DNA of 64,000 nucleotides from a virus (IMGVR_UViG_3300027983_002388), one strand, 5' to 3'. Shown: positions 30,464 to 51,785, counted from the stretch's first letter. The notes: generated by a model not told the origin, from the sequence alone. Translations and numbers: made by a program.

Positions 30464-30492
30464 TTTACAAGTGACAAAAGCCGTGGTATGAT
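30464..30492 (+). promoter_or_regulatory. Promoter TTTACA-N12-CGTGG-TATGAT
   Basis: Matches window consensus; no credible ORF downstream. Confidence 0.7.
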
Positions 30493-30498
30493 ACCAAC

Positions 30499-30780
30499 GT
30501 CCTGATCGGACAACGCTTCTTGTGAGTCTGGGCGTGTGGGGCTTGCCTCATTATCAGACGAGGGTGGGAGTCAACCTAATGACCGGGTTTTAATGTTTGC
30601 ACCAAAGCATAAGCAAGCGTCGGCTTCTATGGGTTGTCTGTGCCGTAATCAGACCACCCGGCTTCTATGGGTTGTCTGTGCCGTAATCAGACCACCCGGC
30701 TTCTATGGGTTGTCTGTGCCGTAATCAGACCACCCGGCTTCTATGGGTTGTCTGTGCCTCAATCAGACCACCCGCCTGCG
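30499..30780 (+). ncRNA. Candidate structured ncRNA of unknown class
   Basis: Follows a promoter; no credible ORF; GCTTGC/GCAAGC and ACGCTT/AAGCGT pairings; ends in hairpin repeats. Confidence 0.4.
30621..30772. repeat. Four tandem copies of a 38-bp hairpin unit CGGCTTCTATGGGTTGTCTGTGCCGTAATCAGACCACC
   Basis: Copies at 30621, 30659, 30697, 30735 (last has CTC for CGT); no spacers. Confidence 0.95.
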
Positions 30781-30806
30781 AGTTGAATAAAATTTCAGAT
30801 TCCGTC

Positions 30807-30835
30807 TTGAAATTTTGTTTCGAGACGACTACTAT
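30807..30835 (+). promoter_or_regulatory. Sigma70-type promoter TTGAAA-N17-TACTAT upstream of the tRNA array
   Basis: Consensus boxes with 17-bp spacer. Confidence 0.65.
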
Positions 30836-30883
30836 AACAGACACAAGCGAACAAAACGTCCGCACAATCAATTGGAGTTCATC

Positions 30884-30964
30884 GTGAACACTTTATCCCT
30901 CAGTCTATCGCTCTCTTATTCCTTGCTATCATTTAGCAACGGAGAAGGCTGCGTCCTGACTTAA
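30884..30964 (+). CDS. Putative attenuator leader peptide MNTLSLSLSLSYSLLSFSNGEGCVLT
   Basis: GGAG SD at 30874-30877, GTG start; 7 Leu + 7 Ser codons. Confidence 0.65.
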   Translation: MNTLSLSLSLSYSLLSFSNGEGCVLT

Positions 30965-31037
30965 AGGGACAATTGTGGGGAAGAATAAACCCCCGGCAGC
31001 TTTCTCCAGAAATGGAAAAGCTGCCGGGGGTTTTTTT
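30941..31037 (+). promoter_or_regulatory. Antiterminator/terminator switch (attenuator)
   Basis: GGAGAAGGCTGC (30941-30952) pairs with GCAGCTTTCTCC (30996-31007), excluding the terminator. Confidence 0.7.
30990..31037 (+). terminator. Intrinsic terminator directly before the first tRNA
   Basis: CCCCCGGCAGCTTT/AAAGCTGCCGGGGG stem, GAAA loop, T7 tract. Confidence 0.9.
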
Positions 31038-31042
31038 AGTTT

Positions 31043-31132
31043 GGGAGTAAGGCGACTGCTGGTTGTGTCGCACCTGCCTGTAAAGCAGGGCCTACAAGGT
31101 AAACATCGCAGGTTCAATTCCTGCTGCTCCCA
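31043..31132 (+). tRNA. tRNA-Tyr(GTA)
   Basis: GGGAGTA/TGCTCCC acceptor; CCTGC-CTGTAAA-GCAGG; GCAGG-TTCAATT-CCTGC; long variable arm. Confidence 0.85.
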
Positions 31133-31204
31133 CTGTGTACGTCAGATTTATTGTTGCGTCCTCACTCTTGTAGTGCGGAGGCAACTAATGAAAGAATAAC
31201 AAAC

Positions 31205-31276
31205 GGATCGGTAGCTGAGATGGAGTATCGCTGGCCTGAAAAGCCGGAGACGAGGATTCGAGCGACTCCCGATCCA
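31205..31276 (+). tRNA. tRNA-Phe(GAA), degenerate D and T stems
   Basis: GGATCGG/CCGATCC acceptor; CTGGC-CTGAAAA-GCCGG; imperfect T stem. Confidence 0.55.
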
Positions 31277-31288: not shown

Positions 31289-31849
31289 ATGATGGAACCG
31301 ATTTATTTGCCATCTGCTGGCAACGATATGAGCAGAGTGGTTAACTCTATTTTCGATGAAACGAAGGGTCTTGAATGGCTGACCGAGAGGTCTGCCCGGA
31401 AAGAATACTTCATGTCCACGAAAGACAGAGAGTATAGCTACGGGAACAGACATCAAGGCGACGTAATGTACAGAAGCAAGCCATTCAGTTTTTTAGTGGG
31501 ACAGTTTATGGAGTACATAAACGAAACACAGAAATCTGAATTCAATGTTTGTTTTCTGAACCGCTACGAAAACGAACAACAGCACCTTGGATGGCACGCT
31601 GATGATTTTCCGGGAATGAGAGCCGATCAGTCAATCGCCGTGTTGTCGTTGGGAGCAGAACGGGAAATATGGTGGAAGGAAAAATCCTTCAAAGGAATTA
31701 TTCCACCAGAAAATAAACAACTGTTGGAACACGGCAGCATATGGATTATGCCTGTTGGATTTCAAGATGTTTATCTTCACAAAATTCCAAAACATGGAAA
31801 GCCTTGTGGAGAAAGGATCAGTTTGACATTCAGAAGTTTTGTTGATTGA
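31289..31849 (+). CDS. alkB: AlkB-family 2OG-Fe(II) dioxygenase
   Basis: LNRY...GWHAD...SLG...H.IPK...RISLTFR; true start after tRNA-Phe. Confidence 0.9.
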   Translation: MMEPIYLPSAGNDMSRVVNSIFDETKGLEWLTERSARKEYFMSTKDREYSYGNRHQGDVMYRSKPFSFLVGQFMEYINETQKSEFNVCFLNRYENEQQHLGWHADDFPGMRADQSIAVLSLGAEREIWWKEKSFKGIIPPENKQLLEHGSIWIMPVGFQDVYLHKIPKHGKPCGERISLTFRSFVD

Positions 31850-31946: not shown

Positions 31947-32021
31947 GGCACGGTGATGCAATTTGGCAGACATCTCACGCTTAGAACGTGGGTTCTGTGG
32001 GTTCGAGTCCCACCCGTGTCA
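31947..32021 (+). tRNA. tRNA-Leu(TAG), short variable loop
   Basis: GGCACGG/CCGTGTC; TCACG-CTTAGAA-CGTGG; GTGGG-TTCGAGT-CCCAC. Confidence 0.85.
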
Positions 32022-32037
32022 CTTTCCTGGAAAACAA

Positions 32038-32123
32038 GGGTTCTGTTCCTCATGCCTGACTGTAAATCAGGTGACAAAAAATTTTGAGGCGGCTGTCGAG
32101 GGGTTCAACTCCCTCAGAACCCA
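32038..32123 (+). tRNA. Non-canonical tRNA-Tyr(GTA)-like RNA lacking a D arm
   Basis: GGGTTCT/AGAACCC; CCTGA-CTGTAAA-TCAGG; only ~9 nt where the D arm should be; 25-nt variable region. Confidence 0.6.
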
Positions 32124-32162: not shown

Positions 32163-32239
32163 GCCCAGGTGATGCAACCTTCGGTAGACATCCGATACTC
32201 AAAATATCGGTTTTACGGGTTCGAGTCCCGTCCTGGGTA
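32163..32239 (+). tRNA. tRNA-Leu(CAA), short variable loop
   Basis: GCCCAGG/CCTGGGT; CCGATA-CTCAAAA-TATCGG; ACGGG-TTCGAGT-CCCGT. Confidence 0.85.
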
Positions 32240-33804: not shown

Positions 33805-33881
33805 GTCCAAGTAGGCAAACCTCCGGCAAAGCCGCCAGATCGAGAGTCTGGTGTTTGTGGGTTCGACTCCCACCTTGGACA
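33805..33881 (+). tRNA. tRNA-Leu(GAG), short variable loop, atypical anticodon loop (TC-GAG-AG)
   Basis: GTCCAAG/CTTGGAC; CCAGA/TCTGG; GTGGG-TTCGACT-CCCAC. Confidence 0.75.
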
Positions 33882-33958: not shown

Positions 33959-34032
33959 GGCTCAGTAGGCAATCGGCAGACCACCCAGGCTTAAACCCAG
34001 GGATGCTGTGAGTTCAAATCTCACCTGAGCCA
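33959..34032 (+). tRNA. tRNA-Leu(TAA), short variable loop
   Basis: GGCTCAG/CTGAGCC; loop CTTAAAC; GTGAG-TTCAAAT-CTCAC; one A-A mismatch in the anticodon stem. Confidence 0.8.
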
Positions 34033-34047
34033 CTTGATTTTTAATAC

Positions 34048-34129
34048 GGCTTTGTGGTGAAATTGGCAAACGCACAGCACTCAAAATGCTGCGTCGAAAG
34101 ACTTGTGGGTTCGAGTCCCACCAAAGCCA
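34048..34129 (+). tRNA. tRNA-Leu(CAA), canonical long variable arm
   Basis: GGCTTTG/CAAAGCC; CAGCA-CTCAAAA-TGCTG. Confidence 0.92.
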
Positions 34130-34247
34130 CTGTTTCGATTTCTGGATCTGGCTCTTACTCGTTGTGAGTAGAAACACCTTTTTTTGGTGGGGTTATAGAA
34201 GTCAAACCTCCAACGGTGATCTCGTAAAGATCACAGGAGAAAGTAAA

Positions 34248-35420
34248 GTGAAGAAAGTCCACATCAATGTCGGAACGATTGGTCACATTGACCACGGGAA
34301 GACGACTCTGACAGCAGCAATTCTCGCTGTTCAGTCCGAGAAGGGTTACGCAAAAAAGAAAGCATACGGCGACATCGCCAAGGGCGGCACCGTTCGTGAC
34401 GTTACCAAAACGGTAACGATCACCACGTCGCACGTTGAGTATGAGACGGATACCCGTCACTATGCTCACATTGACTGCCCCGGTCACGCCGACTATGTAA
34501 AAAATATGATTACCGGGGCTGCTCAAATGGACGGCGCTGTATTGCTCGTCAATGCAGCAGACGGTCCTATGCCTCAGACGAAAGAGCATATTCTGCTCGC
34601 TCGTCAGGTGGGCGTGCCGGATATTGTAGTATTCCTCAATAAGTGCGATCTTGTCAAAGACGAAGAATTGCTGGAACTGGTCGAGATGGAAACAAGAGAC
34701 TTGCTGACGAAGTATGGCTTCGACGGCGAGAAGACTCCGTTTATCCGTGGAGCAGCAAAACCTGCCTTGGATAATCCTGCTGATCCCGCAGCAAGCAAGT
34801 GTATTGTAGAATTGTTGGCGGCTCTGGATTCTTATATTCCTGACCCCAGCCGTTCTATCGACCGTCCCTTCTTGATGCCCGTCGAAGGTGTTCACAATAT
34901 CGAAGGTCGTGGCTGCGTAGTCACGGGCAAGATCGAGCAAGGAACCATCACGGTCGGAACCAAAGTTGAAATCCTTGGGTTGACTGATATTCTGGAGTCA
35001 GTTGTCACCAGCGTCGAGGCTTTCAATAAGCAACTGGAATATGGAGAAGCTGGACAGAATGTCGGTTTGCTGCTGAGAGGCATCAAGGCCGATCAAGTTC
35101 AGCGTGGACAGGTTGTGGCACAACCACGAAGCATCAAGCCTCACACCAAGTTCAAGAGCGAAATTTACGTCTTGGGCAAGGATGAGGGCGGGCGTCACAC
35201 CCCGATCTTCAATGGTTACAAGCCACAGTTCTTCTTCAGAACTACCAACGTCACCGGCCTTGTCCAAATGCCGGAAGGAATTGAGTTGGTCATGCCGGGC
35301 GAGAACACTTGCCTGTTTATCACCCTGGATAAGCCGATTGCTATCGAAAAAGGTAGTCACTTCGCCATTCGTGAGGGTGGTATGACAGTCGGTTCTGGCG
35401 TCGTGACGGAATTGCTGTAA
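34248..35420 (+). CDS. tuf: Elongation factor Tu (Planctomycetota-type switch I)
   Basis: [20 protein letters not shown]; GTG start with GGAGA SD. Confidence 0.97.
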
Positions 35421-35443
35421 AACGGCTGTAAAACGGCTGTAAA
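35414..35443. repeat. 11-bp tandem repeat GCTGTAAAACG (~2.7 copies)
   Basis: Direct reading; overlaps the tuf stop codon and the -35 box. Confidence 0.85.
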
Positions 35444-35485
35444 GCAAAGCGAAAGCGTGGTATAATCAAATACCACGCTTTCGCT
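35438..35485 (+). promoter_or_regulatory. Promoter TGTAAA-N12-CGTGG-TATAAT inside a perfect 16-bp inverted repeat
   Basis: AGCGAAAGCGTGGTAT (35448-35463) / ATACCACGCTTTCGCT (35470-35485). Confidence 0.75.
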
Positions 35486-35528
35486 GCAACGGTTAAGAAA
35501 TTTCCATTGGCACGCACCAGGCATAAAC

Positions 35529-35810
35529 ATGCGTCGAGAAACAACCATCATCGGCATGATAACAATCATTTTCATGATTGTCGTTTTCTTCATTTCAAGT
35601 GCCACTAATTCCAGCGATCAAGCCAAAATACAAAAATGGGCTAGTGACAACAAATATGTCATAGTCACATCTGAACGGTGTTTTTTCTACTCCGGCCCTT
35701 ATTGGACGACTAAAAACACTCGGATTTACAAAGTCGATTTGGAAAATAACAAAACCCATTGGTTCCGATTCGGACTTTGGGGAACCGACACCGACATCGA
35801 GGAATATTGA
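35529..35810 (+). CDS. Membrane-anchored hypothetical protein
   Basis: N-terminal TM helix. Confidence 0.6.
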   Translation: MRRETTIIGMITIIFMIVVFFISSATNSSDQAKIQKWASDNKYVIVTSERCFFYSGPYWTTKNTRIYKVDLENNKTHWFRFGLWGTDTDIEEY

Positions 35811-36947
35811 TGCGAAGACAAAGACCCACCGCTTGTGAAATCCGAAAACAAATGAACACTGCCGATAGCACCCACCAAAGGTGTGTGTCGGATTATTCAT
35901 TTGGTAAATTCAAAATGAAACCGGGAGAAGTAATTCTTACTTGGCACGACAAAGAAAACGACAAGCACAATAGAATGGTATTGACCCACCGTTCAACTGG
36001 CGTCCAAATATTTGGATATATCAAGCCAGGATACAACCCATCCAAAAAAGAGATCAGCGAAATGCGAAAGCATTTTATCAAAAAGAATTTGTCTTTACTT
36101 GAAAGCATGACGAGGCGACACCTTAGAGCGTGCATGGCAAGTCAGTATGGACCCATTCCAAAAGGACAGTTCGATGAGTAGAAATCAAATCAAACGATGT
36201 GCCTGTGGGCTACCGCTTCATTATCGAGACAAAACCAAAGAAGCGGAAGTTCAAGGAGAGATCGACAAGCTCGGAGAATGGATACCATTCAGCATTGGTC
36301 AAAGTCGATATTTGGTGCAAAGACACTACAAAGAACTGCACGGCCTTAATCCAAATGAAGTTCCTGCTTTAATGAAGCAAGGAATTATCAGAATAAACAA
36401 GGATTAAAGTCGATATGAACACCTACTCCAACGAACTCATGCAAAAACTGACAAATCAGTTTTAGGCGACATTTTACAATTGGTGCCAAACATTTGGAAG
36501 TTGCTAGTTTTTCGACCTTTTCATGAATTGGCAATAGCATCAATCACAGACAATGTTGCATCATCAGATATTGTCGCTAGAGCTTTGGGCAATTTTTTTA
36601 GCTCCCAAGATTTTCTTTGTTGGTTGGCAATAATTCAGACGCCCAATTATACATTTCAGATAATAAATCTCCAAATTGTTTGGCTCGACTTTGATTACAA
36701 AAATGTAAAGGATAATTGCTATGAGGAAAATGCCAATTAGAACAACCATCCCACTTAATGTGTCCAATTAACAATGGATCTTCATCAGAAACTTCTTGAT
36801 TTCCTTGGTAAATAAAAAAATTAACAATATGTCCATTTTTATGCAAGTCAGCCAACACCACATAAGGATCTTCTGATCCTTGAAAGAACTCTCTTAATGT
36901 ATTCGACATTTCATTGTCTTTCTAAATTTATTTTATTGTCTAATGGC

Positions 36948-37208
36948 TCATACAACAATTCTTACGTTTCCGGGTGGCTTTCTAGGAGCCATCTCTCCCT
37001 GTCCCAAAATCATTACAGAGTGTCCAACTTGTGTTAGGTGAAACTCTAAAGTCACATCCTCAACCATCCAAAGTCCCATGCCAGTTCCATTACAGTGTGG
37101 ACAAGGTCCATCAACCAAACCACTGCAATTACAATTTCCACAAGATTTCTTTACGAAAAAATCCATATCCATCTCCGCCACAAGTGTAACAAAAATCACA
37201 TGGCACAA
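36948..37208 (-). CDS. DnaJ-like Zn-finger/C-terminal fragment (uncertain)
   Basis: CGNCNCSG...CPHCNGTG...GQG...PGNVRIVV. Confidence 0.4.
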   Translation of the reverse strand: MCHVIFVTLVAEMDMDFFVKKSCGNCNCSGLVDGPCPHCNGTGMGLWMVEDVTLEFHLTQVGHSVMILGQGEMAPRKPPGNVRIVV

Positions 37209-37481
37209 AATCGCTCAGTGGAAGAAAGAATGAACATTTTGGCTCTTATCCCAATTGGTGGGATTGCCGGTATGCCGCCATATACGCCACATGCAGGATC
37301 AGGAAAAATCGCCTGTGCTGGCTGTGGTATAGCTTGTTGGATCGGTCCTCGTCAAACCGTGATGAAGCTCGAAAAGCCTGAACTCCCGGCATTGTGCATG
37401 TTGTGTGCGTGCAAAGAAATACAAAAACAAAAAGAATCAGACGAAGAAGTAACTGCATCCGTGATTCCATTAGGTGATTGA
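37200..37481 (+). CDS. Small Cys-motif protein
   Basis: CAGC...C and CMLC motifs. Confidence 0.5.
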   Translation: MAQNRSVEERMNILALIPIGGIAGMPPYTPHAGSGKIACAGCGIACWIGPRQTVMKLEKPELPALCMLCACKEIQKQKESDEEVTASVIPLGD

Positions 37482-38134
37482 ATATGCAAAGAGATTATAG
37501 TTGGAAGCCATCCTGGAGTCCTATTCACAAAGAATGTGACGTTCACCCTCATGTCCCTGCGGAACGTGCTGATTTATTTGAGGTCGCCGATGGCGGCTCT
37601 ACTGAATATGAAGTCTTAAATTGGCTTCATTCCACAATCCGAGTATTGAAGCCACAACTGGTTCTTGAAACTGGTGCGTGGGAGGGTTTCGGAACAACCG
37701 CCCTAGCTCATGCTTGCAAACTCAATGGATTCGGCAAGGTGCATTCTCTTGAAGTTCTGCCGCCACAATGCGTGCGACTTCAGACGGTTCTTGAAGAAGA
37801 ACACTTGCTTAAATGGGTTGAAGTGCATTGCGTAGATTCGCTTGAATTCTTGCAACAATCTAATATTATCTTCGATATTGGATTCTTTGATAGCCTGACC
37901 GAGATCAGGCCCATCGAATGCGAGATAATGCTCAACAAAGGCACGTTGAGAAACCTTGCTGTCTTCCACGACACATCGCCTCATCGGTCTGAATCCGCTC
38001 CTGATTGGACCAGCACAGAAACTCAAAACACATACAGAGAAAAGGTCTTGGCCTTAGCCAAACATCCCCGATGTACTGGCTACTATGATTCCCCACTATC
38101 CAGAGGATTCATGGCCTTGTTCTTAAAAGGCTAA
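37478..38134 (+). CDS. Class I SAM-dependent methyltransferase (Methyltransf_24-like)
   Basis: [10 protein letters not shown]...SLE...FDIGFFDS...FHD. Confidence 0.75.
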
Positions 38135-38135
38135 C

Positions 38136-38473
38136 ATGAAAAACGTAGTTGTAATGTTCCCATATCCATCGGGTGCCGGTTTACACTTGGGGCATTACTA
38201 TAATTATGCCATTATCGACAGCTATTGTCGATTTCTGCGATATGAGGGCGAAGAAGTCTTTCAGCCTTTTGGATATGACGCATTCGGACTGCCTGCCGAG
38301 ATCAAGGCTTGAAGAATTCAGTACGAAATTATTTGTTCTTTTGGAAAGTGAACAAGGTGGTCAGCACATTCATGACCTTCTATAACGACAACAAAGACAA
38401 AAAAGTCTCGCCCGCCAACGCCAAAGAGATTGTCCAGTTGCTTCAAAATTTTGCACCTGGATTTAATCTTTGA
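38136..38473 (+). pseudogene. leuS: Leucyl-tRNA synthetase relic: HIGH-motif N-terminus plus out-of-frame anticodon-binding-domain fragment
   Basis: 38136-38312 [14 protein letters not shown]...[12 protein letters not shown]; other frame to 38473 VNKVVSTFMTFYN...LLQNFAPG. Confidence 0.8.
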
Positions 38474-39189
38474 AAATATCGTTCTGCACAACTTGTATGG
38501 GCAGGGTTCATCATCTAATGAGAACCCTGCCCATAAATATTCATGTCGCTCCAGATTGCGAATTTGTGTTGCTTAACTATGGCAGCAAAGATGGAATGCA
38601 CGAGTGGGTCCGAGACAATATGCGTCCTTGGATAAATCGAGGAACCATCAAGTATTATAGAACTCAGCTTCCTGAATACTTCGTGGCGACACATGCCAAA
38701 AACATTGCACATCGCCAAGCGACCGGCGATATTCTTTGCAATTTAGACGCAGACAATTTCTTGATTGACGGCTTTGTTGAATTGGTTAAAAAGACCATGA
38801 GCGACAAACAAAGCATTATGACTGCTCCTATATTTGATATGTTCAATATGTCGGGCAGTTGCGGAAAGATAGCAGTTCATCGAGAGCATTTCTATAGCGT
38901 AAATGGATACAACGAAGACATCAATTTGGGATGGGGGTGGGATGATATTGATTTTGAATTACGTGCAGCCATGCACAACAAATTGAAATACGCTCAAACT
39001 CCCGTGAAGTTTTGCCGAGTAATAGACCACGACGAATCAGATCGAGTCAAGAACTTTCGCACCAAAAACTTGAAGGATTCCCAACGGACAAATGGGGAAC
39101 TGTTGGAAACGGTGAAAAATACTAGAAATTACGTTGTCAACAAAAACAGAGAGTGGGGAGTTGCATTAGATTTATCCAGTGATATATAA
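38470..39189 (+). CDS. GT2/GT7-like glycosyltransferase
   Basis: NLDAD; VNGYNED...GWGWDDIDF. Confidence 0.75.
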   Translation: MKISFCTTCMGRVHHLMRTLPINIHVAPDCEFVLLNYGSKDGMHEWVRDNMRPWINRGTIKYYRTQLPEYFVATHAKNIAHRQATGDILCNLDADNFLIDGFVELVKKTMSDKQSIMTAPIFDMFNMSGSCGKIAVHREHFYSVNGYNEDINLGWGWDDIDFELRAAMHNKLKYAQTPVKFCRVIDHDESDRVKNFRTKNLKDSQRTNGELLETVKNTRNYVVNKNREWGVALDLSSDI

Positions 39190-39192
39190 GAC

Positions 39193-39417
39193 ATGATTAA
39201 ATTCAAAGACTGGATGCAGACAAGAGAAGCCAAACTCCGAGAAATGGGGAGTGGTCCATATATTGGAAACTGCACTGACACCAGTGATTATCAAGTAATT
39301 GGTGCTTGTAGCGATCAAAATTCCGAAGAAAAGAACAAGGCGTATCGAAAAGGTGGCGTAGACCACAAAAAAGTCCACAAGCATTCCGACAAGATCAGAT
39401 CAAAAGTCGGTATATAA
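39193..39417 (+). CDS. Small protein with CTS-like N-terminus (MIKFKDWMQTRE)
   Basis: TATATAAG 10 nt upstream of ATG. Confidence 0.55.
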   Translation: MIKFKDWMQTREAKLREMGSGPYIGNCTDTSDYQVIGACSDQNSEEKNKAYRKGGVDHKKVHKHSDKIRSKVGI

Positions 39418-39420
39418 GGT

Positions 39421-39840: not shown

Positions 39841-39917
39841 ACTTGATTTTATCTTTCGTGATTGTATACTCATAACTTGTGTTGAGAACCAACCAAGGCC
39901 CCAAAGGAGAGTTTACA

Positions 39918-40370: not shown

Positions 40371-40450
40371 TCCAAACCGCTATAGAAAGCATTGGCTACA
40401 GTAAATCGGGTGATTTAGGGAAAGGTACGTCCTTTCCTTTGGGGAAACAA

Positions 40451-40555: not shown

Positions 40556-40593
40556 CCACCCAACACTCGACACTGGCAATGCTGGTGCCTGGA

Positions 40594-42537: not shown

Positions 42538-42896
42538 GGCATTTAATTATGTGGGCTGTTCTTTGCACGGATGGACAATTGAACCTCAACGAAGTTCGCA
42601 ACGAATGTGTGCCCGGCAAATGGGTGCCATTATTCGTTTACAGAACGAACCCTGAAGACAATCCTGTTGTCCCTGTATTCCACGATGGGTTAACTACCAA
42701 GAAATTCGCCAAACGAAACATGCCTAAGAATTGGATGTGTGGCGGGGTAGAGCTTACCGACAGGGATGTTGAGTGGATGAAAGAAAAAGGATGGATCATC
42801 AAAGAAATGACTTATCCTCAAAAAGTTGACAACTTCATCTGTGGCTTTGAGGTTCTTGAGTTTGCCGAAGCCCCTGATTTCAGGACAAGTAGATGA
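42534..42896 (+). CDS. Hypothetical protein
   Basis: ORF overlapping its neighbours by 4 nt. Confidence 0.55.
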   Translation: MRHLIMWAVLCTDGQLNLNEVRNECVPGKWVPLFVYRTNPEDNPVVPVFHDGLTTKKFAKRNMPKNWMCGGVELTDRDVEWMKEKGWIIKEMTYPQKVDNFICGFEVLEFAEAPDFRTSR

Positions 42897-43516
42897 AACG
42901 TGAAGTTGACGACATTCATGTTGCCGCCAAAAAGTTCGTGTCTCGATATATTCGAGGCCGCAAACCTCGTCGTTTACACACATCCAGCAGCAAGCTGGCT
43001 CTGAAGGATATTCATCTCACACCACAAATCACCGATCACAAACCTAAAGGCATTTGGTACGGAATTGCCGATTCATGGATTGATTGGTGTATTAGCGAAC
43101 ATTTTGGAGGCATCCACCAATACATCTACGAAGTCGTATTGGACGAAGGCAATATATTGACCATTGACAATATCCAAGACTTTGAAAAGTTCGAGGACGA
43201 ACACAAGGATATTCCTGAGTGGCGTAAAGAACTTCAGTCCGTCGATGGCTTCCCATTTGATCTGCCATTCGGAAGATCGAGATATTTTGACAGCATGAAC
43301 TACAGGAAGGTTTCTGAAACTTTCGGAGGGATTGAAATTACTCCCTATCAATGGGAAAAAAGACTTGAATCTATGTGGTATCATGGTTGGGACTGTGCCA
43401 GCGGGTGCATTTGGAATCCCAGCGTCATCAAGGATTTAAGGCTTTTTGCCTACTTTGATGCCCGAAAAGGTGAGTTCGTCAAAACGAGTTTACAACCCGA
43501 CAAAACCAAGGTATAA
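42893..43516 (+). CDS. Hypothetical protein (KPKGIWY...WDCASGCIW)
   Basis: ORF. Confidence 0.6.
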   Translation: MKREVDDIHVAAKKFVSRYIRGRKPRRLHTSSSKLALKDIHLTPQITDHKPKGIWYGIADSWIDWCISEHFGGIHQYIYEVVLDEGNILTIDNIQDFEKFEDEHKDIPEWRKELQSVDGFPFDLPFGRSRYFDSMNYRKVSETFGGIEITPYQWEKRLESMWYHGWDCASGCIWNPSVIKDLRLFAYFDARKGEFVKTSLQPDKTKV

Positions 43517-43517
43517 T
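43489..43517 (+). promoter_or_regulatory. Promoter TTTACA-N17-TATAAT
   Basis: Consensus boxes upstream of the DUF350 operon. Confidence 0.65.
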
Positions 43518-43577
43518 CCTTTCGTTGCTTCTAAACCTTCAGTTCACAGTTCACAGTACACAAACAGGGGAGTTGAG

Positions 43578-43796
43578 ATGAATTTGCCAGAGAACTTTTG
43601 GATCGGTGTGTTTGGTTCTTTGATTTTCGGTTTCATGGGCATCGTGTTGTTGCTCGTTGGCTTCAAGATGTTCGACTGGCTTCTGCCCAAGGTCGATTTC
43701 CAGGCTGAAATGAGAGGAAACCCGCTCGCAACGTCCATCATCGTTGCCTCGTTTTTTCTGGCGTTAGCACACATCATCGCCTCGTGCGTACACTAA
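43578..43796 (+). CDS. DUF350 membrane protein
   Basis: Two TM helices; FDWLLPKVDFQAE..GN.A. Confidence 0.8.
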   Translation: MNLPENFWIGVFGSLIFGFMGIVLLLVGFKMFDWLLPKVDFQAEMRGNPLATSIIVASFFLALAHIIASCVH

Positions 43797-43886
43797 CGGT
43801 ATTCACGTTGCTCGATCATAAGTCCGGCTAACGGCGAGCAGCAATTGCGGCTTGTCTAGTCGGACTTTTTCTTATGTGAGCGAGTC

Positions 43887-44249
43887 ATGCCAATAAGTCG
43901 ATTCATGAACAACAAGATGACTAAAAAGGTCGGACTTGTTCTGATCTCGTCATCTTTGATCCTCAATGGATGTTCACATCATGTGCCAGAGCAAGACCCT
44001 TCACAAGAGGGTCAACCGCAAATAATTCATGGTGGCGTTCATCCGTTTTGGTATTTCCATCACAGTGGCGGCTACGTTGGCGGAAGTGGATATAGTGGCG
44101 GGGGTTTCCATCCCGGCACTTATACGCATGGTGGCGGCATAGTCTCAAGCGGTGGAATTCGCAGTGGTGGAGGATTCAAAGCATCGCCATCAGTTAGCGC
44201 CCGTGGCGGCTTTGGTGCTTCCAGTCATGCCTTTGGTGGAGGATCATAA
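43887..44249 (+). CDS. Gly-rich lipoprotein (DUF1190/YjfM-like position)
   Basis: Lipobox LNGC; C-terminal RGGFGAS. Confidence 0.65.
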   Translation: MPISRFMNNKMTKKVGLVLISSSLILNGCSHHVPEQDPSQEGQPQIIHGGVHPFWYFHHSGGYVGGSGYSGGGFHPGTYTHGGGIVSSGGIRSGGGFKASPSVSARGGFGASSHAFGGGS

Positions 44250-44250
44250 C

Positions 44251-44472
44251 ATGGCAGTTGAAACAGATATTACAAAGCGTTGGGAACAAGGGATAGATCA
44301 CCATCCCAAAAGCATCGCTTTGTTCAAAAAACTAGCAGAAATCGACTTCAAATTCGGTGGAGATTTCTTCGACTGGTCATCAGGTGGCGATGGAGACAAT
44401 GGCGAACATTTAATGTACGAAATGGACATTATGTTCGAGAAAGAAGATGCTGAAATAGGAGCTTCATCATGA
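44251..44472 (+). CDS. Hypothetical protein (GGDGDNGE motif)
   Basis: ORF with SD. Confidence 0.55.
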   Translation: MAVETDITKRWEQGIDHHPKSIALFKKLAEIDFKFGGDFFDWSSGGDGDNGEHLMYEMDIMFEKEDAEIGASS

Positions 44473-45614
44473 AGCGACACACAACCGATCTTAGGCATGA
44501 TTGGAAAAAGACCATTGAAGGTCAGGGAATGTTATTTCATACATTTGATGGCGATATTTATTGGGACGAGTCAGCATACTACGAGTTAAACAGTCCTGAA
44601 GTAGACACCATAGAGGCGGCTACTTACGAACTGAATGATCGTTGTCTTGAAGCTGTTCAACACGTCATCGACAATGATCTGTTAGATGCTTTCTTGATCC
44701 CGCCCGAATTCCATCAGTTTATCCAAGACAGTTGGGAGAGAGACGAACACACCATTTATGGTCGGTTTGACTTTTCCTATGACGGAAAAACCCAACCAAA
44801 GATGTTGGAGTTCAATGCCGACACGCCTACCGGCCTGATAGAAGCTGCTGTTACCCAATGGTATTGGGCAAAAGACAAGTTTCCAAATCGGAACCAATTC
44901 AACTCAATACACGAGCGGCTAATTAAGGTTTGGAAAGAACTGAAGTCCGTGACGCCAGGAGTATTGTATTTTACGGCACTCGCTGGCAATCTCGAAGATT
45001 ACATGAACGTCAATTATCTTCGAGACACTGCCATCCAAGCCGGGTGGGATACTGAATATATTGACATTGAAAACATCGGATGGAACGAAGGTCGCCGTAC
45101 ATTCACCGACCTGAACGAAAATCCAATACAGACATGCTTCAAGCTGTATCCTTGGGAATGGATGCAGACCGACGAGTTTGGCAGAAAACTATTCCTCAAG
45201 ACCACCAAATGGCTTGAGGCTCCGTGGAAGGCAATCCTTAGCAACAAGGCCATTCTGCCTATATTGTGGGAGTTGTTTCCCGATCATCCAAACTTATTAG
45301 AAGCATCGTTTCAACCAATTCGCACAAAACCTTACGTTCAGAAGCCAATTCTGAGTCGTGAGGGAGCTAATGTGCAAATATTTGAGCATGGCGAATTGCT
45401 GCTTAAAACTGATGGTCCTTACGATGGACCATGTGTATATCAACAACTATGGGAACTTCCCAACTTTGATGGCAATCACGCCTGCATTGGTAGTTGGTTG
45501 GTCAACGGCTGGGCTTGTGGAATAGGCATTCGAGAAGACAAAACCATTGTAACGGGGAACCTGAGTCGGTTCGTACCGCACATTTTCGGTGTTCGACCAA
45601 AATACGGGAGTTAA
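44469..45614 (+). CDS. Glutathionylspermidine-synthase-like ATP-grasp ligase (YgiC/YjfC family)
   Basis: YWDESAYY, GRFDF, LEFNADTPT, FKLYPWEW, KPILSREG, GSW. Confidence 0.92.
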   Translation: MKRHTTDLRHDWKKTIEGQGMLFHTFDGDIYWDESAYYELNSPEVDTIEAATYELNDRCLEAVQHVIDNDLLDAFLIPPEFHQFIQDSWERDEHTIYGRFDFSYDGKTQPKMLEFNADTPTGLIEAAVTQWYWAKDKFPNRNQFNSIHERLIKVWKELKSVTPGVLYFTALAGNLEDYMNVNYLRDTAIQAGWDTEYIDIENIGWNEGRRTFTDLNENPIQTCFKLYPWEWMQTDEFGRKLFLKTTKWLEAPWKAILSNKAILPILWELFPDHPNLLEASFQPIRTKPYVQKPILSREGANVQIFEHGELLLKTDGPYDGPCVYQQLWELPNFDGNHACIGSWLVNGWACGIGIREDKTIVTGNLSRFVPHIFGVRPKYGS

Positions 45615-45618
45615 GATC

Positions 45619-46872
45619 ATGGCTGCAAACAAAAAGATTCACATCATCGGTGGTGGAACGGTCGCACAAATTGGCCCGCACTTGGCTTTGTGCGCCCCAG
45701 CTTATGGTGGCACTGCAAAGAGACTACATCACTTGTGCTGGCAGCAGTGCCACACTCTGGACTCTGAACTCCATCTCACCAAGATGGCTGGCGGAAATGA
45801 ACTGGAAACCAATGCTGATATTGCAAAATTGGTGAACGAAATCGTTGCCGATCCAGCATCAAAGATCGTGTTTTTGAATGCTGCTCTGGTTGATTTTCAA
45901 TACGATGGTGTTGCCGACAAATACGGCGAGCGAATTAAATCTCGTGAAACTCCACACCTTCAGTTGAACTTTGTTCCAGCGGATAAAGTCGTTGGCAATA
46001 TCCGCAAGAATCGTAAGGATATTTTTGCCGTCGCATTCAAAACGACTTCAGGAGCAACGCCAGAAGAACAATACATCGCTGGCTTAAATCTCCTGAAAGA
46101 GTCCAGCCTGAATTTGGTTTTTGCCAACGATGTGAAAACTCGATTGAACATGGTCATTACGCCTGAAGAGGCTCGTTATCACGAAACCACAGATCGTGAT
46201 GAAGCCCTGGAAGGCTTGGTCGAAATGACTTTGCTTCGATCTCATTTGACCTTCACTAGATCAACCGTCGTAGACGGTCAACCTGTGCCTTGGGACTCGG
46301 AATTGGTGCCTGAAGCACTCCGCACGGTTGTCGATCACTGCATCAGTGCTGGTGCCTACAAGCCATTCCGAGGGGCGACTGTGGGGCATTTTGCTTGTAA
46401 GGTAAACGACACAACTTTCCTTACAAGTATTCGCAAGTCGAACTTCAACGATCTACCCAATACTGGTCTGGTTCGTATTGTGACTGATGGGCCAGACAGC
46501 GTGATCGCTTATGGTGCCAAACCGAGTGTCGGTGGGCAAAGTCAACGTATTGTGTTCCACGATCATCAGGAATACGACTGCATTGTTCACTTCCATTGCC
46601 CGATTAAACCGGGATCAGAAGTACCAGAAGTCTCACAGCGGGAATACGAGTGTGGGTCGCATCAATGTGGAGAGAACACCAGCAAAGGACTGAAGCAGTT
46701 CGGAAACTTGAGCGCCGTTTATCTTCAAGAGCATGGACCCAATATTGTTTTCAATCGCTCGATCAATCCGCAAGAAGTGATCGACTTCATTGATGCCAAC
46801 TTCGATCTGAGCGATAAGACTGGCGGTTATGTGAGCTTGGGGCAAATCCTCACGACTCCTCACGACTCCTGA
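45619..46872 (+). CDS. CoaB/DFP-like nucleotidyltransferase-fold domain fused to a class II aldolase-like domain
   Basis: GGGT...AALVDF...VAFK...VFAND; C-terminal IVHFHCP. Confidence 0.6.
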   Translation: MAANKKIHIIGGGTVAQIGPHLALCAPAYGGTAKRLHHLCWQQCHTLDSELHLTKMAGGNELETNADIAKLVNEIVADPASKIVFLNAALVDFQYDGVADKYGERIKSRETPHLQLNFVPADKVVGNIRKNRKDIFAVAFKTTSGATPEEQYIAGLNLLKESSLNLVFANDVKTRLNMVITPEEARYHETTDRDEALEGLVEMTLLRSHLTFTRSTVVDGQPVPWDSELVPEALRTVVDHCISAGAYKPFRGATVGHFACKVNDTTFLTSIRKSNFNDLPNTGLVRIVTDGPDSVIAYGAKPSVGGQSQRIVFHDHQEYDCIVHFHCPIKPGSEVPEVSQREYECGSHQCGENTSKGLKQFGNLSAVYLQEHGPNIVFNRSINPQEVIDFIDANFDLSDKTGGYVSLGQILTTPHDS

Positions 46873-47827: not shown

Positions 47828-48370
47828 ATGAGCGAAAAAAAGTCAACAAGGGATGATTTTCGTAATGCCGTATTCAAACGGGATGGCTATGCCTGCGCTA
47901 TGTGCGGGCATAAACCAGAAAACGTCAATGAATTAGACGCCCACCACATTACAGATAGAACCTACATGCCATTCGGTGGATATTGTGCCGCCAATGGCAT
48001 TTCGCTTTGTACAGATCGCTGCAAGAAGGAATCTTGGCTGGGTTCTTCGCTCGATTGTCACCAGAAGGCAGAACACCTTCACGCTACCGGAATTGAATTT
48101 CCGGGATATGCTCCAGTGAACCTTTATGCTAGAATCAAGTCTTCCTATAAACAGGCTTATTCGCACAGTCTCAAGCTAGAGATCACAGCCAATAGAGCCG
48201 ACGCAATGATGGCCGTCATTGACGTAATCTCCAAAAAAGAATTGGAGGTATGTCTTCGCTTGTGTGAAAACACCAGCCCGGAGACATGGGAGTTAACTTG
48301 TGACGAACTAAGTGAGTGGGAACCCCTCAATAGAACTTACGGAAAAGGTCGCTATGTCCCTGACAAATGA
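47828..48370 (+). CDS. HNH endonuclease
   Basis: VFKRDGYAC..CG...DAHHI...NGISLC..CH. Confidence 0.8.
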   Translation: MSEKKSTRDDFRNAVFKRDGYACAMCGHKPENVNELDAHHITDRTYMPFGGYCAANGISLCTDRCKKESWLGSSLDCHQKAEHLHATGIEFPGYAPVNLYARIKSSYKQAYSHSLKLEITANRADAMMAVIDVISKKELEVCLRLCENTSPETWELTCDELSEWEPLNRTYGKGRYVPDK

Positions 48371-49445
48371 ACAGAAAGATGTCCTGAAGCTCTTAGTGGG
48401 CAATATGGACAACCACCAGCAGCAAACTCTTGGTGGATATGCGGGGACAGGAAAATCAACAATTATTCGAGTGATGCTCGACGCCCTTCAACGAAAAGGG
48501 CGATATTTTTGCGCAGCCGCATTTACCGGCAAAGCCACGAACGTATTGCGCAAAAAGGGAATGAATGCCAATACGATTCACAGCACGATATACCAGCCGT
48601 ACAAAGACGAGCATGGCGAAACCGTGTGGTTCTTAGCTGACAAAACTGACTTAGTGTCCAAGGGCATTGACGGCTTCATTATTGATGAAGCGTCTATGGT
48701 GAGCAAGGAAATACACGACGATCTTATGTCGTTTGGCCTGCCAATTATCTATGTTGGCGATCACGGTCAACTTGAGCCTATTGGCACCAAATTCAACCTT
48801 ATGCAAAAGCCAATGTATAAGCTGGAGACGGTTCATCGAAATGCTGGTGAGATTGCATATTTTGCCGAGCATCTTCGCAAGGGCAATTCTGCCAATTCCT
48901 TCATGGGAGCAACGAAGGTTCAGATTGTTCAAGAAAAAGCAATTGAGGATCGACACCTTGCTGCCGTCGATCAAATCATCTGCGCCTTCAATAAGACTCG
49001 TGTGCAACTCAACGAGCGTGTGCGTATCGAGAAAAAGATTCAATATACATTCATTGCCAAAGGCGAGAAGGTCATTTGTTTAAGGAACAATAAGAAGCAG
49101 GGTTTGTTTAATGGGATGCAAGGCGTTGTCCAGAAAATCCACAAGAACGACCGCTTTGACTTTATATCGGATGGCAACTTCTTCGAGAAGGTCCATTACG
49201 ATCCTGACCAGTTTGGAAAAGACTCAAATAAGTTTGAGTTTTCCCAGGCAGCAAATCCATTCGATTACGCATACGCCATCACTTGCCATAAGGCTCAAGG
49301 CGACGAATGGGGCAATGTGATCGTATACGAACAGCGATGCGATAAATGGGATAACGTGCGATGGTCTTATACAGCAGCCAGTCGTGCAAAAAACGGACTG
49401 ATCTGGATCGCTGTAGAAGAGTTCCGACCCAACTATCTAGGGTAA
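48354..49445 (+). CDS. RecD/Dda-like SF1B helicase
   Basis: GYAGTGKS, IIDEASMV, GDHGQLEP, YAITCHKAQG. Confidence 0.9.
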   Translation: MSLTNEQKDVLKLLVGNMDNHQQQTLGGYAGTGKSTIIRVMLDALQRKGRYFCAAAFTGKATNVLRKKGMNANTIHSTIYQPYKDEHGETVWFLADKTDLVSKGIDGFIIDEASMVSKEIHDDLMSFGLPIIYVGDHGQLEPIGTKFNLMQKPMYKLETVHRNAGEIAYFAEHLRKGNSANSFMGATKVQIVQEKAIEDRHLAAVDQIICAFNKTRVQLNERVRIEKKIQYTFIAKGEKVICLRNNKKQGLFNGMQGVVQKIHKNDRFDFISDGNFFEKVHYDPDQFGKDSNKFEFSQAANPFDYAYAITCHKAQGDEWGNVIVYEQRCDKWDNVRWSYTAASRAKNGLIWIAVEEFRPNYLG

Positions 49446-49545
49446 TGTTAAAAGAACCAATCAGTAAATGTGCATCGCATTGGGCTGTGGGCGTACTCGA
49501 CACCAATCGTGCCGAATATTTCAAAGCCAAGAATTTGGAGATTAG

Positions 49546-49574
49546 TTTACAGATCGCCGAAATCGTGGTATCAT
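49546..49574 (+). promoter_or_regulatory. Promoter TTTACA-N12-CGTGG-TATCAT upstream of the RNase P RNA
   Basis: Window consensus. Confidence 0.7.
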
Positions 49575-49613
49575 CTATCGCAAAAATCAAGCTCCACGAG
49601 TATGATATAAGGG

Positions 49614-49888
49614 GATGCAACTTGTCGAGTCGTCGCTGTAATCCCCTCAAGGGGTTGTAGAGGAAGTTCTGGACACTACTGCTTTTAAGGTAGGAGCGAA
49701 AACCTCGAAAGGGGCTAATAGTGTTTGAACTACCGAGGGTGCAAGCCATACAGACCAAAATCTCGTAAGAGGTACGCCGGTGAGCAGGGCGTCATCATGG
49801 TCGGGTCGGTGCAGTCCGCAAGGACCGGGGGCAACTCCGAGATAAATGACGACATAGAACAGAATCCAGGCTATGGATAAGTTGCATC
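49614..49888 (+). ncRNA. rnpB: Minimal RNase P RNA (~275 nt)
   Basis: P1 49614-26/49876-88; P2 GTCGTC/GACGAC; CR-I GAGGAAGTTCTGGAC; CR-V ACAGAATCCAGGCTA with P4 covariation. Confidence 0.85.
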
Positions 49889-49915
49889 TCCTTTTCAAGT
49901 CAAAAAGGAGATGTC

Positions 49916-50707
49916 ATGCGTGCCGAAATTGTCCACGTTACGGACCACGCTTTGTTGCGATGGAAAGAACGTGCGTCGAAAACAGGTGAAGTCAACGTAG
50001 AAGAAATCGTTCAGGCTGTAAAAGAATCCAAGGTCATCAAAAAAAACGAACCTTTGCCTTACCCGATGCCTCGTTTAGATGGATCAGTTTACAGCTTCAA
50101 TGCCGGAGTGTTGTTCATTCTCGAATCAGTAACCATTGATGAATATCGACTCGTCACAGTTATCGCCGACGAGCCGACCTATCAACGGATTGCTCGACCG
50201 CCGAAGAAACAACTTAATCCTCGAAAGAGACAGAAATACGAGGAAGTTCAAAAGGTGCAAATCGACATTCCTTGCTTTGAAAGTTTCATCGAAGAACGTC
50301 AATGGTTGACCGACGAGAAACGAAAACTCGAAAGTGAACTGGCAACAACAGCGAAGAAATCTTCCACTCGCAAAGAAATATTGAAGGTGTGGGGCGAGAT
50401 TGAAGCCCGACTCACCGAGAACAAACCTCAATATCTCGAAGAGCGGAAAAAATCAGGAGACGGATATGTTGACTATGGTTCTCTTCTTTTGCAAATTATC
50501 AGAGAGTTAAAAGAAATACGCTCTGAACAACAGGAATTACGTAACCTAATCGAAGGCTCCAATGGACAACAACCGAGATCACCGAGCAATCGGAAAAAAG
50601 CTAGACCTCTTCATGTTCAGCCCTCTATCGCCGGGTTGTCCGATCTGGCTCCCGAAGGGAGTTGTGCTTTATCAGTCTTTGCTGAACCGCATTCGTCAAC
50701 TCAATGA
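49916..50707 (+). CDS. Protein with a RelE/DUF4258-like N-terminal domain (TDHALLRWKER) and coiled-coil C-terminus
   Basis: HAxxR helix, beta meander ending VTVI. Confidence 0.45.
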   Translation: MRAEIVHVTDHALLRWKERASKTGEVNVEEIVQAVKESKVIKKNEPLPYPMPRLDGSVYSFNAGVLFILESVTIDEYRLVTVIADEPTYQRIARPPKKQLNPRKRQKYEEVQKVQIDIPCFESFIEERQWLTDEKRKLESELATTAKKSSTRKEILKVWGEIEARLTENKPQYLEERKKSGDGYVDYGSLLLQIIRELKEIRSEQQELRNLIEGSNGQQPRSPSNRKKARPLHVQPSIAGLSDLAPEGSCALSVFAEPHSSTQ

Positions 50708-51785
50708 AGCCAATGGTTGCCAAGAAGTTCGGACCCCACTTATATGGAAGTCCGAACTTTATGCAACCAGCGGACACCTGGATCACTATGCAAAAAATAT
50801 GTTCTTCGTCAGTGATAAGCCTGCTGGCGAGTCCCACGAAGAAGGACATGAAGATCAGTGCTTAAAACCAATGAATTGTCCTGGGCATATGGAGATATTC
50901 CGCTCGAAACAGTGGAGCTATCGAGACTTGCCTGTTCGATTCGCTGAATATGGTCCTTTACACCGCAATGAAGTTTCTGGTGCCTTGGGTGGGCTAACTC
51001 GCTGTCGTGCATTCTGCCAGGATGACGCCCACATTTTCGTTTCGCCGGACAACCTACAAAGCGAAATCAAACGAATCCTTGTCATGATCGAAAGAGTTTA
51101 CGGATGGTTTGGAATGAAGTTCCGATCCGTACTCAGCACTCGTCCTTATAACTTCATGGGCGAGAAGTTGGTTTGGGATAATGCTGAGGCGAACCTCGAA
51201 GATGCTTTATGCGAAAATGGATTGAAGTTCGAGATTGCCCATAAAGACGGTGCGTTTTATGGTCCAAAAATAGACTTCATTGTGACTGATTCCCTTGGAC
51301 GTGATTGGCAAACAGCAACAATCCAATTGGACTTCCAGTTGCCTCAAAGATTCGGTTGTACCTATACCGACAAGGACGACAAAGAGCAAACTCCAATTGT
51401 CATTCACAGAGCAATATACGGCAGCTTTGAAAGATTCATTGGTGTATTGTTGGAACATACTGACGGGCATCTACCATTATGGTTGGCTCCTGTTGGTGTA
51501 ACCATTGCACCAATCAGCGACAAAGTTGCTGAATACGCTGATGAGATCAAAGAGGTTTTGCTTGCTCATGGAATTCGGTGTGAATGCGATCACTCGAATC
51601 GAACTCTGCAACAGAAGATTGCCATCGGGTACGATAAAAAAGTACCCTACATGGTCATCTTGGGAGAGAAAGAAAAATCCGCAAGAACCGTTACCCTCAA
51701 ACAAATGAGATCAACTGCTGTCGCACAGGAAACCTTATCTTTGGAAGTATTCCTTCCTCAGATGGTCGCACTGGCGAAAGAGTAA
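50562..51785 (+). CDS. thrS: Threonyl-tRNA synthetase lacking the N-terminal TGS/editing domains
   Basis: Starts RDHRAIG; LKPMNCPGH, HRNEVSG, AFYGPKID, IHRAIYGSFERF; anticodon domain present. Confidence 0.95.
   Translation: MDNNRDHRAIGKKLDLFMFSPLSPGCPIWLPKGVVLYQSLLNRIRQLNEANGCQEVRTPLIWKSELYATSGHLDHYAKNMFFVSDKPAGESHEEGHEDQCLKPMNCPGHMEIFRSKQWSYRDLPVRFAEYGPLHRNEVSGALGGLTRCRAFCQDDAHIFVSPDNLQSEIKRILVMIERVYGWFGMKFRSVLSTRPYNFMGEKLVWDNAEANLEDALCENGLKFEIAHKDGAFYGPKIDFIVTDSLGRDWQTATIQLDFQLPQRFGCTYTDKDDKEQTPIVIHRAIYGSFERFIGVLLEHTDGHLPLWLAPVGVTIAPISDKVAEYADEIKEVLLAHGIRCECDHSNRTLQQKIAIGYDKKVPYMVILGEKEKSARTVTLKQMRSTAVAQETLSLEVFLPQMVALAKE

Follow-up and report, generated by a model that had tools for sequence, protein, structure and literature searches.

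Phages such as T4 and T5 supply tRNAs of a limited set of specificities, which replace host tRNAs cut during defense, and we know of no demand-sensing leader among the phage tRNA systems that replace nuclease-cut host tRNAs. In bacteria, the trp, leu, his, and pheST leaders control biosynthetic or synthetase genes by attenuation, using a short ORF of regulatory codons, a nearby terminator, and an alternative pairing with the end of the ORF. On a larger scale, huge phages with genomes of several hundred kb carry dozens of tRNAs, aminoacyl-tRNA synthetases (aaRS), EF-Tu, and other translation genes, and Al-Shayeb et al. (2020) proposed that these intercept host translation, keeping or redirecting it (PMC7162821); the strings "RNase P", "rRNA", and "attenuat" do not occur in the main text of that paper. 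We analyzed a 64,000-nt stretch of viral DNA (the window; IMGVR_UViG_3300027983_002388, one strand), which is bases 5265–69264 of a 98.7-kb IMG/VR virus record with a CheckV completeness of ~20%, and concentrated on positions 30464 to 51785 (the interval), where translation genes and structured RNAs lie together. Relative to the published huge-phage repertoires, the tRNAs here are sorted by amino acid into a separate, putatively gated array, and two structured RNAs, a reduced RNase P RNA-like gene and a copy of the 23S rRNA GTPase-associated center (GAC), occur in the same neighborhood. Full-text literature searches returned nothing relevant on phage-encoded RNase P RNA, on phage mimics of the GAC or other rRNA, or on leader-peptide control of tRNA genes. 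Taken with PMC7162821, this indicates that the general kind of gene set is known but that three of its elements appear new: the mini RNase P RNA, the GAC-like RNA, and the gating leader. All three bear on the question of how the translation genes of huge phages are controlled and why particular sets are chosen.

On balance, we read the interval as an early, plus-strand region of a huge freshwater phage, in which modular translation parts have accumulated on a replication and repair backbone and the tRNA array is gated by a leader; the region has a conserved, syntenic translation-support core that is probably demand-regulated. The window is taken to be a fragment of a huge phage because a 462-kb contig on record carries a protein identical to one that it encodes. 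DNA runs in which almost the entire stretch is found come from freshwater and estuary metagenomes, and a megablast of 34086–42537 against the phage GenBank collection gave zero matches. The interval opens a long plus-strand block that diverges from a minus-strand SbcCD and ribonucleotide reductase (RNR) block; besides RNR and the SbcC- and SbcD-like proteins, the window encodes a replicative helicase and a tail-fiber protein. All features of the interval located below are on the plus strand. An earlier note on this DNA had listed an attenuator, ten tRNAs, EF-Tu, threonyl- and leucyl-tRNA synthetase (ThrRS and LeuRS) genes, the latter a relic, an RNase P RNA, a GAC-mimic RNA, and AlkB, methyltransferase, and deacetylase genes. 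Covariance-model, Pfam, structure, and domain matches recover almost all of these, with the amendments that the ThrRS is editing-less, the LeuRS relic is a 58-codon fragment, and the tenth tRNA is a tRNA-like element with a reduced D arm.

The leader ORF (30884–30964; MNTLSLSLSLSYSLLSFSNGEGCVLT) is 26 codons long, starts with GTG 6 nt behind a GGAG, and has only Leu, Ser, Tyr, or Phe codons from codon 4 to codon 18. An intrinsic terminator (30985–31040), with a ~19-bp stem of about −35 kcal/mol and a U7 tail, lies 25 nt past its stop codon. A segment within the last codons (segment 2, 30941–30952) is complementary to the 5′ arm of the terminator (30996–31007); the resulting 12-bp duplex is worth −20.7 kcal/mol (z = −4.7 versus shuffles). 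When the nascent transcript is folded in silico, the segment 2 pairing forms, and it is blocked when a ribosome is placed at the stop codon. In the mechanism that we propose, scarcity of charged Leu, Ser, Tyr, or Phe tRNAs would stall the ribosome within the leader, leaving the last ORF codons free to base-pair with the terminator's 5′ arm, so that transcription would continue into the tRNA genes; a ribosome that reaches the stop codon would instead allow the terminator to form. Transcription into phage tRNAs would thus be gated by a leader made of codons for the same four specificities. We consider it likely that leader and terminator are a working ribosome-mediated attenuator of the tRNA array.

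This assessment rests largely on comparison. Related records were gathered by scanning viral contigs with EF-Tu and ThrRS, and searching for short frames with a high content of Leu, Ser, Tyr, and Phe codons revealed such a leader in nine loci, down to ~67% EF-Tu identity. All nine are followed by a hairpin of −20 to −35 kcal/mol and a U-tract beginning 19–29 nt past the stop codon. Among close relatives, the reading frame is kept through a 3-nt indel and synonymous changes, and there is one compensatory pair in the 1:2 stem; the antiterminator pairing stands clear of shuffled sequences in the window, L002, and L084 (z of about −4.5) and less so in L007 (z = −2.1). The tRNAs assigned by ARAGORN near the leaders are all Leu, Ser, Tyr, or Phe, bar a Val tRNA that precedes the leader of L007, a CUA suppressor in G003, and a single call without assignment. 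Each Leu, Ser, Tyr, or Phe anticodon species found near a leader is read by at least one codon of that leader, including 11 of 11 species in both L002 and L006. The L084 locus, where the nearby tRNAs are Tyr, Ser, and Phe, has a leader rich in Ser, Phe, and Tyr codons with a single Leu. Two EF-Tu loci, L004 and L026, are without such a leader, and there other tRNAs flank EF-Tu. In the complete 532-kb genome G003 (loci L005, L051–L053, and L058–L081), a cluster at 472–497 kb comprises 13 tRNAs for Leu, Ser, Tyr, and Phe together with a CUA suppressor, and the other tRNAs lie mainly at 0–56 kb; no other amino-acid-biased leader was detected in this genome, including near the tRNAs at 0–56 kb. 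A covariance model of the T-box riboswitch, the other tRNA sensor known, gave no match at E ≤ 1 in 29500–52500. Compared with the trp, leu, his, and pheST attenuators, the putative targets here are tRNA genes rather than biosynthetic or synthetase genes, the device is phage-borne, and the leader mixes four amino acids, sampling up to 11 isoacceptor families. A leader-peptide attenuator ahead of tRNA genes, if real, would be the first case of demand-controlled tRNA supply.

Nine tRNAs score above the Rfam gathering threshold with Infernal, eight of them in the whole-window scan and the ninth (32163–32239) at 40.1 bits in a local scan. ARAGORN recovers six of the nine; three anticodons were read by hand, backed by ARAGORN calls on the homologous genes of relatives. 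The anticodons are Tyr GUA, Phe GAA, and Leu UAG (twice), UAA (twice), CAA (twice), and GAG. Just behind the terminator are tRNA-Tyr (GUA) with a long variable arm (31043–31133) and tRNA-Phe (GAA; 31205–31276; 36.5 bits), followed by short-arm tRNA-Leu genes with UAG (31947–32022), CAA (32163–32239, behind the TTTACA-type promoter-like site at 32131), and GAG (33805–33881; the homologue at L005:9297–9373 was called Leu(gag)). A short-arm tRNA-Leu (UAA) and a long-arm tRNA-Leu (CAA) share 33959–34130, and long-arm forms of tRNA-Leu (UAA) and tRNA-Leu (UAG) lie in 40838–41034. Of the ten tRNAs claimed earlier, the one that fell short is the element at 32038–32123, which has a GUA anticodon and a long variable arm but little of the D arm; with 24.3 bits it stays below the gathering score of 29, and ARAGORN does not call it. 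It is kept in three relatives, with compensatory changes in its acceptor and anticodon stems. Each of the Leu anticodons UAG, UAA, and CAA occurs twice, once in a short-arm tRNA of 75–77 nt and once in a long-arm tRNA of 82–83 nt. Short-arm tRNA-Leu is unusual in bacteria, where the long-arm tRNA classes are Leu, Ser, and Tyr. That the set is confined to Leu, Ser, Tyr, and Phe suggests a specific pressure on those tRNAs. As in T4 and T5, the phage supplies a set of limited specificities; in contrast to those phages, any link to a nuclease or defense system, and with it a counter-defense purpose, is putative here. G003 has 56 tRNA calls, among them three with CUA and one with UCA anticodons, hinting at stop-codon recoding; one long-arm CUA tRNA lies inside its Leu, Ser, Tyr, and Phe cluster.

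The GAC of 23S rRNA (nt ~1051–1108) is the site of L11 and thiostrepton binding. At 40418–40640, the window contains a free-standing RNA that copies the distal part of helix 42 (H42), H43, and H44 and has an additional hairpin at their junction; a 5′ hairpin lies on one side of it and its own terminator on the other. Within its core (40431–40573, ~140 nt), 40442–40561 matches positions 1078–1159 of the large-subunit (LSU) rRNA model, helices 42–44, at E ~1e-8, and the cmscan alignment contains the H43 and H44 hairpins with their conserved loops (A1067 and A1095). There is no other rRNA match in the window, and the RNA, which has phage ORFs and tRNAs on either side, is not inside a 23S rRNA gene. 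The alignment of six phage sequences covers ~140–220 nt; the H42 flanks, H43, H44, and the loops are invariant or nearly so, whereas covariation is seen in the closing stem and in the extra hairpin between H43 and H44. In this alignment, 92% of cells are paired, nine pairs show double changes, and no slid register comes close. Three positions (columns 47, 197, and 204 of alignment A2) are C/C/G in five sequences and U/U/A in the window only. We take these columns to be the 1072/1092/1099 base triple in E. coli numbering, and their joint change argues for selection on the GAC tertiary fold itself. The phage RNA thus shares with the ribosomal GAC the loops of H43 and H44, the AGACA and CGAG flanks of H42, and the base-triple positions, but it is free-standing, ~140 nt long, and has its own covarying closing stem, an extra junction hairpin, and its own terminator. 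In each of the six records, it lies among genes for tRNA-Leu. When all viral contigs were scanned with a pattern, the matches were confined to these phages and two pieces of plain rRNA; a metagenome scan with the pattern CATTCAAAGAGTRGG gave chance 15-mer matches, with none of 80 loci fitting model R1.

A small stable RNA that keeps the L11- and L10-binding GAC fold would most likely titrate a protein or small molecule that binds this site. That it is a decoy for ribosome-stalk factors, as the earlier note had proposed, is a fair guess, and it may be a new kind of viral decoy. The conserved neighbor P0001 (39421–39840) was considered as a partner of the RNA and rejected; its family also occurs in relatives without the RNA and was therefore assigned to the backbone. 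RNA runs listed for 40380–41040 were likewise rejected as evidence of expression. They covered only 40451–40493 and the tRNA genes, and their flanks were genuine 23S rRNA or foreign tRNA contexts, i.e., cross-matches. Two ORFs of G003, at 186003–186209 and 31617–31706, match the C-terminal domain of L7/L12, in one case within a frame of 235 aa; both lie at a great distance from the GAC-like RNA.

The second structured RNA (49617–49889, 273 nt) resembles bacterial type A RNase P RNA. It matches RF00010 with 53.7 bits (E 1e-15), the model being spanned end to end, and the corresponding genes of relatives score 41–67 bits and are 238–294 nt long. The catalytic-domain motifs and P4 are kept, including the CR-I (GAGGAA...) and CR-V (ACAGAAUCC...) consensus motifs, but only a few dozen nt are left of the specificity domain. 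In five aligned sequences, CR-I, CR-V, the GGU loop, and further blocks of the catalytic domain are retained; both P4 and P1 show covariation, and the P4 pairs have compensatory changes between the window and G004. The phage RNA thus shares P1–P4, CR-I, CR-V, and the GGU loop with type A and resembles the type T RNA of the Thermoproteaceae in that the specificity domain is largely missing. It differs from both in its length (238–294 nt), its score below the gathering threshold, and its phage location, and its activity is a prediction. Together with host RnpA, a minimal RNA of this kind would probably cut the 5′ leaders of phage tRNA precursors; a role in maturation is reasonable from the conserved motifs. 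As a naturally minimized bacterial-type RNase P RNA, it would be useful for defining the minimal ribozyme. Its direct downstream neighbor, a 263-aa protein (49916–50707), is conserved next to it in G001, G012, and G003. A weak resemblance to the RelE/YoeB/ParE toxin fold (Foldseek E 0.009–0.1), which dominates the top Foldseek matches, extends over the N-terminal ~85 residues; a disordered lysine-rich linker and three long helices follow. The family forms ~45 clusters in metagenomes, and a protein atlas search with this ORF gave no usable match.

EF-Tu (34248–35420, 390 aa) contains all three Pfam domains (GTP_EFTU, D2, and D3) and matches solved EF-Tu structures at E 1e-169. Its start is most likely the GTG at 34248, behind an AGGAG, and not the start of the 444-codon ORF, which overlaps a tRNA. 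In switch I, the window protein has KTVTI in place of the canonical RGITI, and two extra residues. The form K(T/V)VT(I/V) with two extra residues is found in 10 of 10 EF-Tus of this phage group (including the window, the L002–L010 loci, and L033); in ten other viral-contig EF-Tus, switch I is canonical or reads RGVTI or KGITI. The phage would provide its own EF-Tu with an altered loop, a change that may matter for factors acting on that loop.

The linkage of these parts was followed through relatives. G001 (223 kb) has EF-Tu at 93% and ThrRS at 90% identity, ~17 kb apart as in the window, and is collinear with it, as is G012, a 49.6-kb fragment with EF-Tu at 97% identity. In the more distant G003 (EF-Tu 68%, ThrRS 54%), the order is conserved as EF-Tu, the GAC RNA, the DUF350 and glutathionylspermidine (GSP) synthase genes, the RecD-like helicase, the RNase P RNA, the homologue of the 49916 protein, and ThrRS. 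The core order of attenuator, Leu/Ser/Tyr/Phe tRNAs, EF-Tu, GAC-like RNA, and RNase P RNA recurs at 65–75% EF-Tu identity, with ThrRS in some records. The RNase P RNA-like gene lies 14–25 kb from EF-Tu in seven records (G000, G001, G012, G003, G004, G009, and G011), on the same strand in six of the seven. The GAC-like RNA is present in G000, G001, G012, G003, G004, and G009 and absent from G002, G005, G006, G007, and G008. ThrRS is absent at the syntenic site of G012, and the AlkB, deacetylase, and LeuRS relic genes are absent from both close relatives (G001 and G012; ~90% identical). In place of AlkB, these two carry four genes for tRNA-Ser along with additional Leu and Phe tRNAs. Some related contigs that lack EF-Tu, the GAC RNA, and large tRNA arrays still encode homologues of the SbcCD-like block, the glycosyltransferase, the 39421 protein, DUF350, and the RecD-like helicase.

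The motif TTTACA-N17-TAnnAT has seven matches in the window against 0.44 expected, four of them in the interval (30464, 32131, 43489, and 49546). The sites fit shared, early transcription by the host polymerase; they are consensus matches and are not specific to translation genes. One of them (TTTACA-N17-TATGAT with an extended −10; 30464–30492) heads the plus-strand block, and another (TTTACA-N17-TATCAT; 49546–49574) precedes the RNase P RNA-like gene. Promoter-like and terminator-like sites at several points break the interval up into individual units, so that it does not form a single operon.

Several observations weigh against a coordinated, demand-regulated system. By our count, translation-related sequence makes up ~5 kb of the 21.3 kb, and about three-quarters of the interval is unrelated backbone, so the earlier description of the whole ~21 kb as a translation island fails. 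The phyletic distribution is nested, beginning with the EF-Tu variant, then leader and tRNAs, then RNase P RNA, then GAC RNA, and finally ThrRS; the parts can therefore function without one another, and the pattern suggests stepwise addition of translation parts onto a backbone rather than one system. There is no tRNA-Ser in the window although its leader holds eight Ser codons, and in a crude test the antiterminator pairing did not exceed shuffles in five of the nine lineages (L005, L033, L006, L010, and L008). The RNase P RNA-like gene is under the RF00010 gathering score of 100, a low score that is explained by its incomplete specificity domain (P7–P14), where ~140 model positions are replaced by ~56 nt, and a search for a phage RnpA found none. 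Neither an L10 nor an L11 gene was found in the four records searched, including the complete G003, and there is no RNA run among the public sequencing runs listed for a 10-kb stretch. In a rival reading, host-derived translation genes and RNAs have simply piled up independently in the early region, with no sensing or coupling; each would bring a minor advantage of its own, for instance by compensating codon usage or providing more EF-Tu. Such accretion accommodates the patchy distribution, the behavior of AlkB, the HDAC-family deacetylase, and the LeuRS relic as indels between ~90%-identical genomes, the loss of ThrRS from one of them, the interleaving with backbone genes found in relatives without EF-Tu, GAC-like RNA, or RNase P, and the several promoter-like and terminator-like sites; many tRNAs, aaRS, and EF-Tu were in any case already known from huge phages (PMC7162821). 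It leaves unexplained why the codon families of the leader are those of the adjacent tRNAs in nine lineages, why the 19–29 nt spacing from stop codon to terminator is constant, and why the order of EF-Tu, GAC RNA, and RNase P RNA survives ~30% protein divergence. We judge accretion on its own to be unlikely. The earlier note's single coordinated system keeps its linked core and shared promoter type; the several transcription units, the methyltransferase that sits beside a glycosyltransferase, and the nested pattern speak against the rest of that claim. Linkage in relatives, the point on which that note would have had itself judged, is borne out by the collinear core and not by AlkB, the deacetylase, or the LeuRS relic.

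The two remaining alternatives concern single elements. If the short ORF were no sensor, the terminator would simply end an upstream non-coding transcript from 30464, and the Leu- and Ser-rich frame would be a by-product of RNA structure. The promoter-like site and a structured, untranslated stretch of ~300 nt upstream of the ORF are compatible with this, the terminator forms in the free full-length fold whatever the leader does, and the five lineages with insignificant antiterminator pairing fit it as well. Selection on RNA structure does not, however, predict that the frame, its Shine-Dalgarno sequence, and the amino-acid bias are kept to ~67% EF-Tu identity despite strong nucleotide divergence, that close relatives differ by synonymous changes and a frame-keeping 3-nt indel, or that the Tyr, Ser, and Phe tRNAs of L084 are mirrored in its leader; we regard it as quite improbable. 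The sensing of tRNA loss that the earlier note had claimed has strong comparative support in the nine leaders and their codon/tRNA match, the antiterminator being its weak side. The GAC-like RNA, in turn, could be a dead captured 23S fragment, of which a plain example exists on another viral contig (L044), or a cis-regulatory r-protein leader instead of a trans-acting mimic; bacterial r-protein leaders do mimic rRNA sites. A dead fragment would hardly persist in six phages, keep its core invariant while closing stem and insert covary, undergo a three-way base-triple change, and have its own terminator, and a cis-acting leader is made unlikely by the lack of L10 and L11 genes in the four records, the L12-like domains of G003 being far away. 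We consider both versions very improbable.

A leader-gated tRNA array on a modular region thus remains our preferred reading. The fuller proposal, that this phage clade runs a self-regulating tRNA supply in which one leader peptide polls all eleven Leu, Ser, Tyr, and Phe isoacceptor families and releases transcription of the matching tRNAs once any family is depleted, backed by a phage-specific EF-Tu, a minimal RNase P, and a GAC RNA that soaks up a host factor, is tentative, and we hold it possible rather than probable. Were it true, the target of the GAC RNA could be L11, L10–L12, a component of the stringent response, or a defense effector aimed at the GAC site.

In some lineages, the core is joined by a ThrRS without editing domain. 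In the window, this gene (50562–51785) overlaps the preceding ORF by 146 nt and encodes only the catalytic (class II core) and anticodon-binding domains, with E 1e-99 to ThrRS structures. From ORF residue 4–5 onward, it aligns with residues ~241–613 of the 642 in the E. coli enzyme; because the alignment begins at residue 241, the TGS and editing domains are missing. The LeuRS relic (38136–38473) keeps the N-terminal 58 codons with the HIGH region. Its frame 38136–38312 matches LeuRS residues 37–88, HIGH region included, at E 2e-14; a second frame, considered as a C-terminal, anticodon-domain piece, had no significant match and was rejected. Class I aaRS genes of ~510 aa, too short for an editing domain, occur at G003:457390–458424 and G004:256262–257188, and the window fragment is 35% identical to that of G003. 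In G012 (L003:3271–3966) and G003 (499594–499977), the leader is immediately preceded by a gene for a protein of ~230–275 aa that weakly matches a class II aaRS core, GlyRS being the best match at E 0.0025. This protein also occurs at G009:81224–81478 and G010:39808–40188 and is absent from the window.

The AlkB, deacetylase, and methyltransferase genes and the LeuRS relic are lineage-specific passengers and not parts of the module; the repair and charging functions that the earlier note proposed are speculative. The 186-aa AlkB-like 2OG-Fe(II) oxygenase (31289–31849; PF13532, E 1e-17) has the HxD...H and RxxxxxR motifs. The class I S-adenosylmethionine (SAM) methyltransferase (Methyltransf_24; 37478–38134), which adjoins the family-2 glycosyltransferase, yielded no evidence of a tRNA substrate. 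An HDAC-family deacetylase or amidohydrolase (Hist_deacetyl) is encoded at 41569–42537. Non-translation content includes, besides the glycosyltransferase and many uncharacterized ORFs, an unrelated group at 42893–46872, comprising an uncharacterized ORF, DUF350, a GSP-synthase-like ATP-grasp protein, and a DFP-like protein, and the RecD/Pif1-like helicase, a backbone gene (48312–49445). The row at 42893–45614 runs uncharacterized ORF, DUF350, another such ORF, and GSP-synthase-like, with the DFP-like gene next; it is partly kept in G003 and recalls the yjf gene group of E. coli.

The untranslated stretch behind the 30464 promoter-like site contains four tandem 38-nt units (30621–30774), each with a potential 9-bp hairpin. 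The copies are 98% identical and the array occurs only in this genome; since L002 and L005 have no tandem array at the corresponding site, it is a recent amplification. We considered and rejected the repeats as a ToxI-like type III toxin–antitoxin RNA, as the array is unconserved and there is no adjacent toxin gene. Outside the interval, four 35-nt tandem repeats (99% identical) lie at 16626–16764, and long imperfect 120-nt repeats together with short ones of 9–18 nt lie at 61283–62516, within the minus-strand tail-fiber-like gene (collagen-like, fiber repeats).

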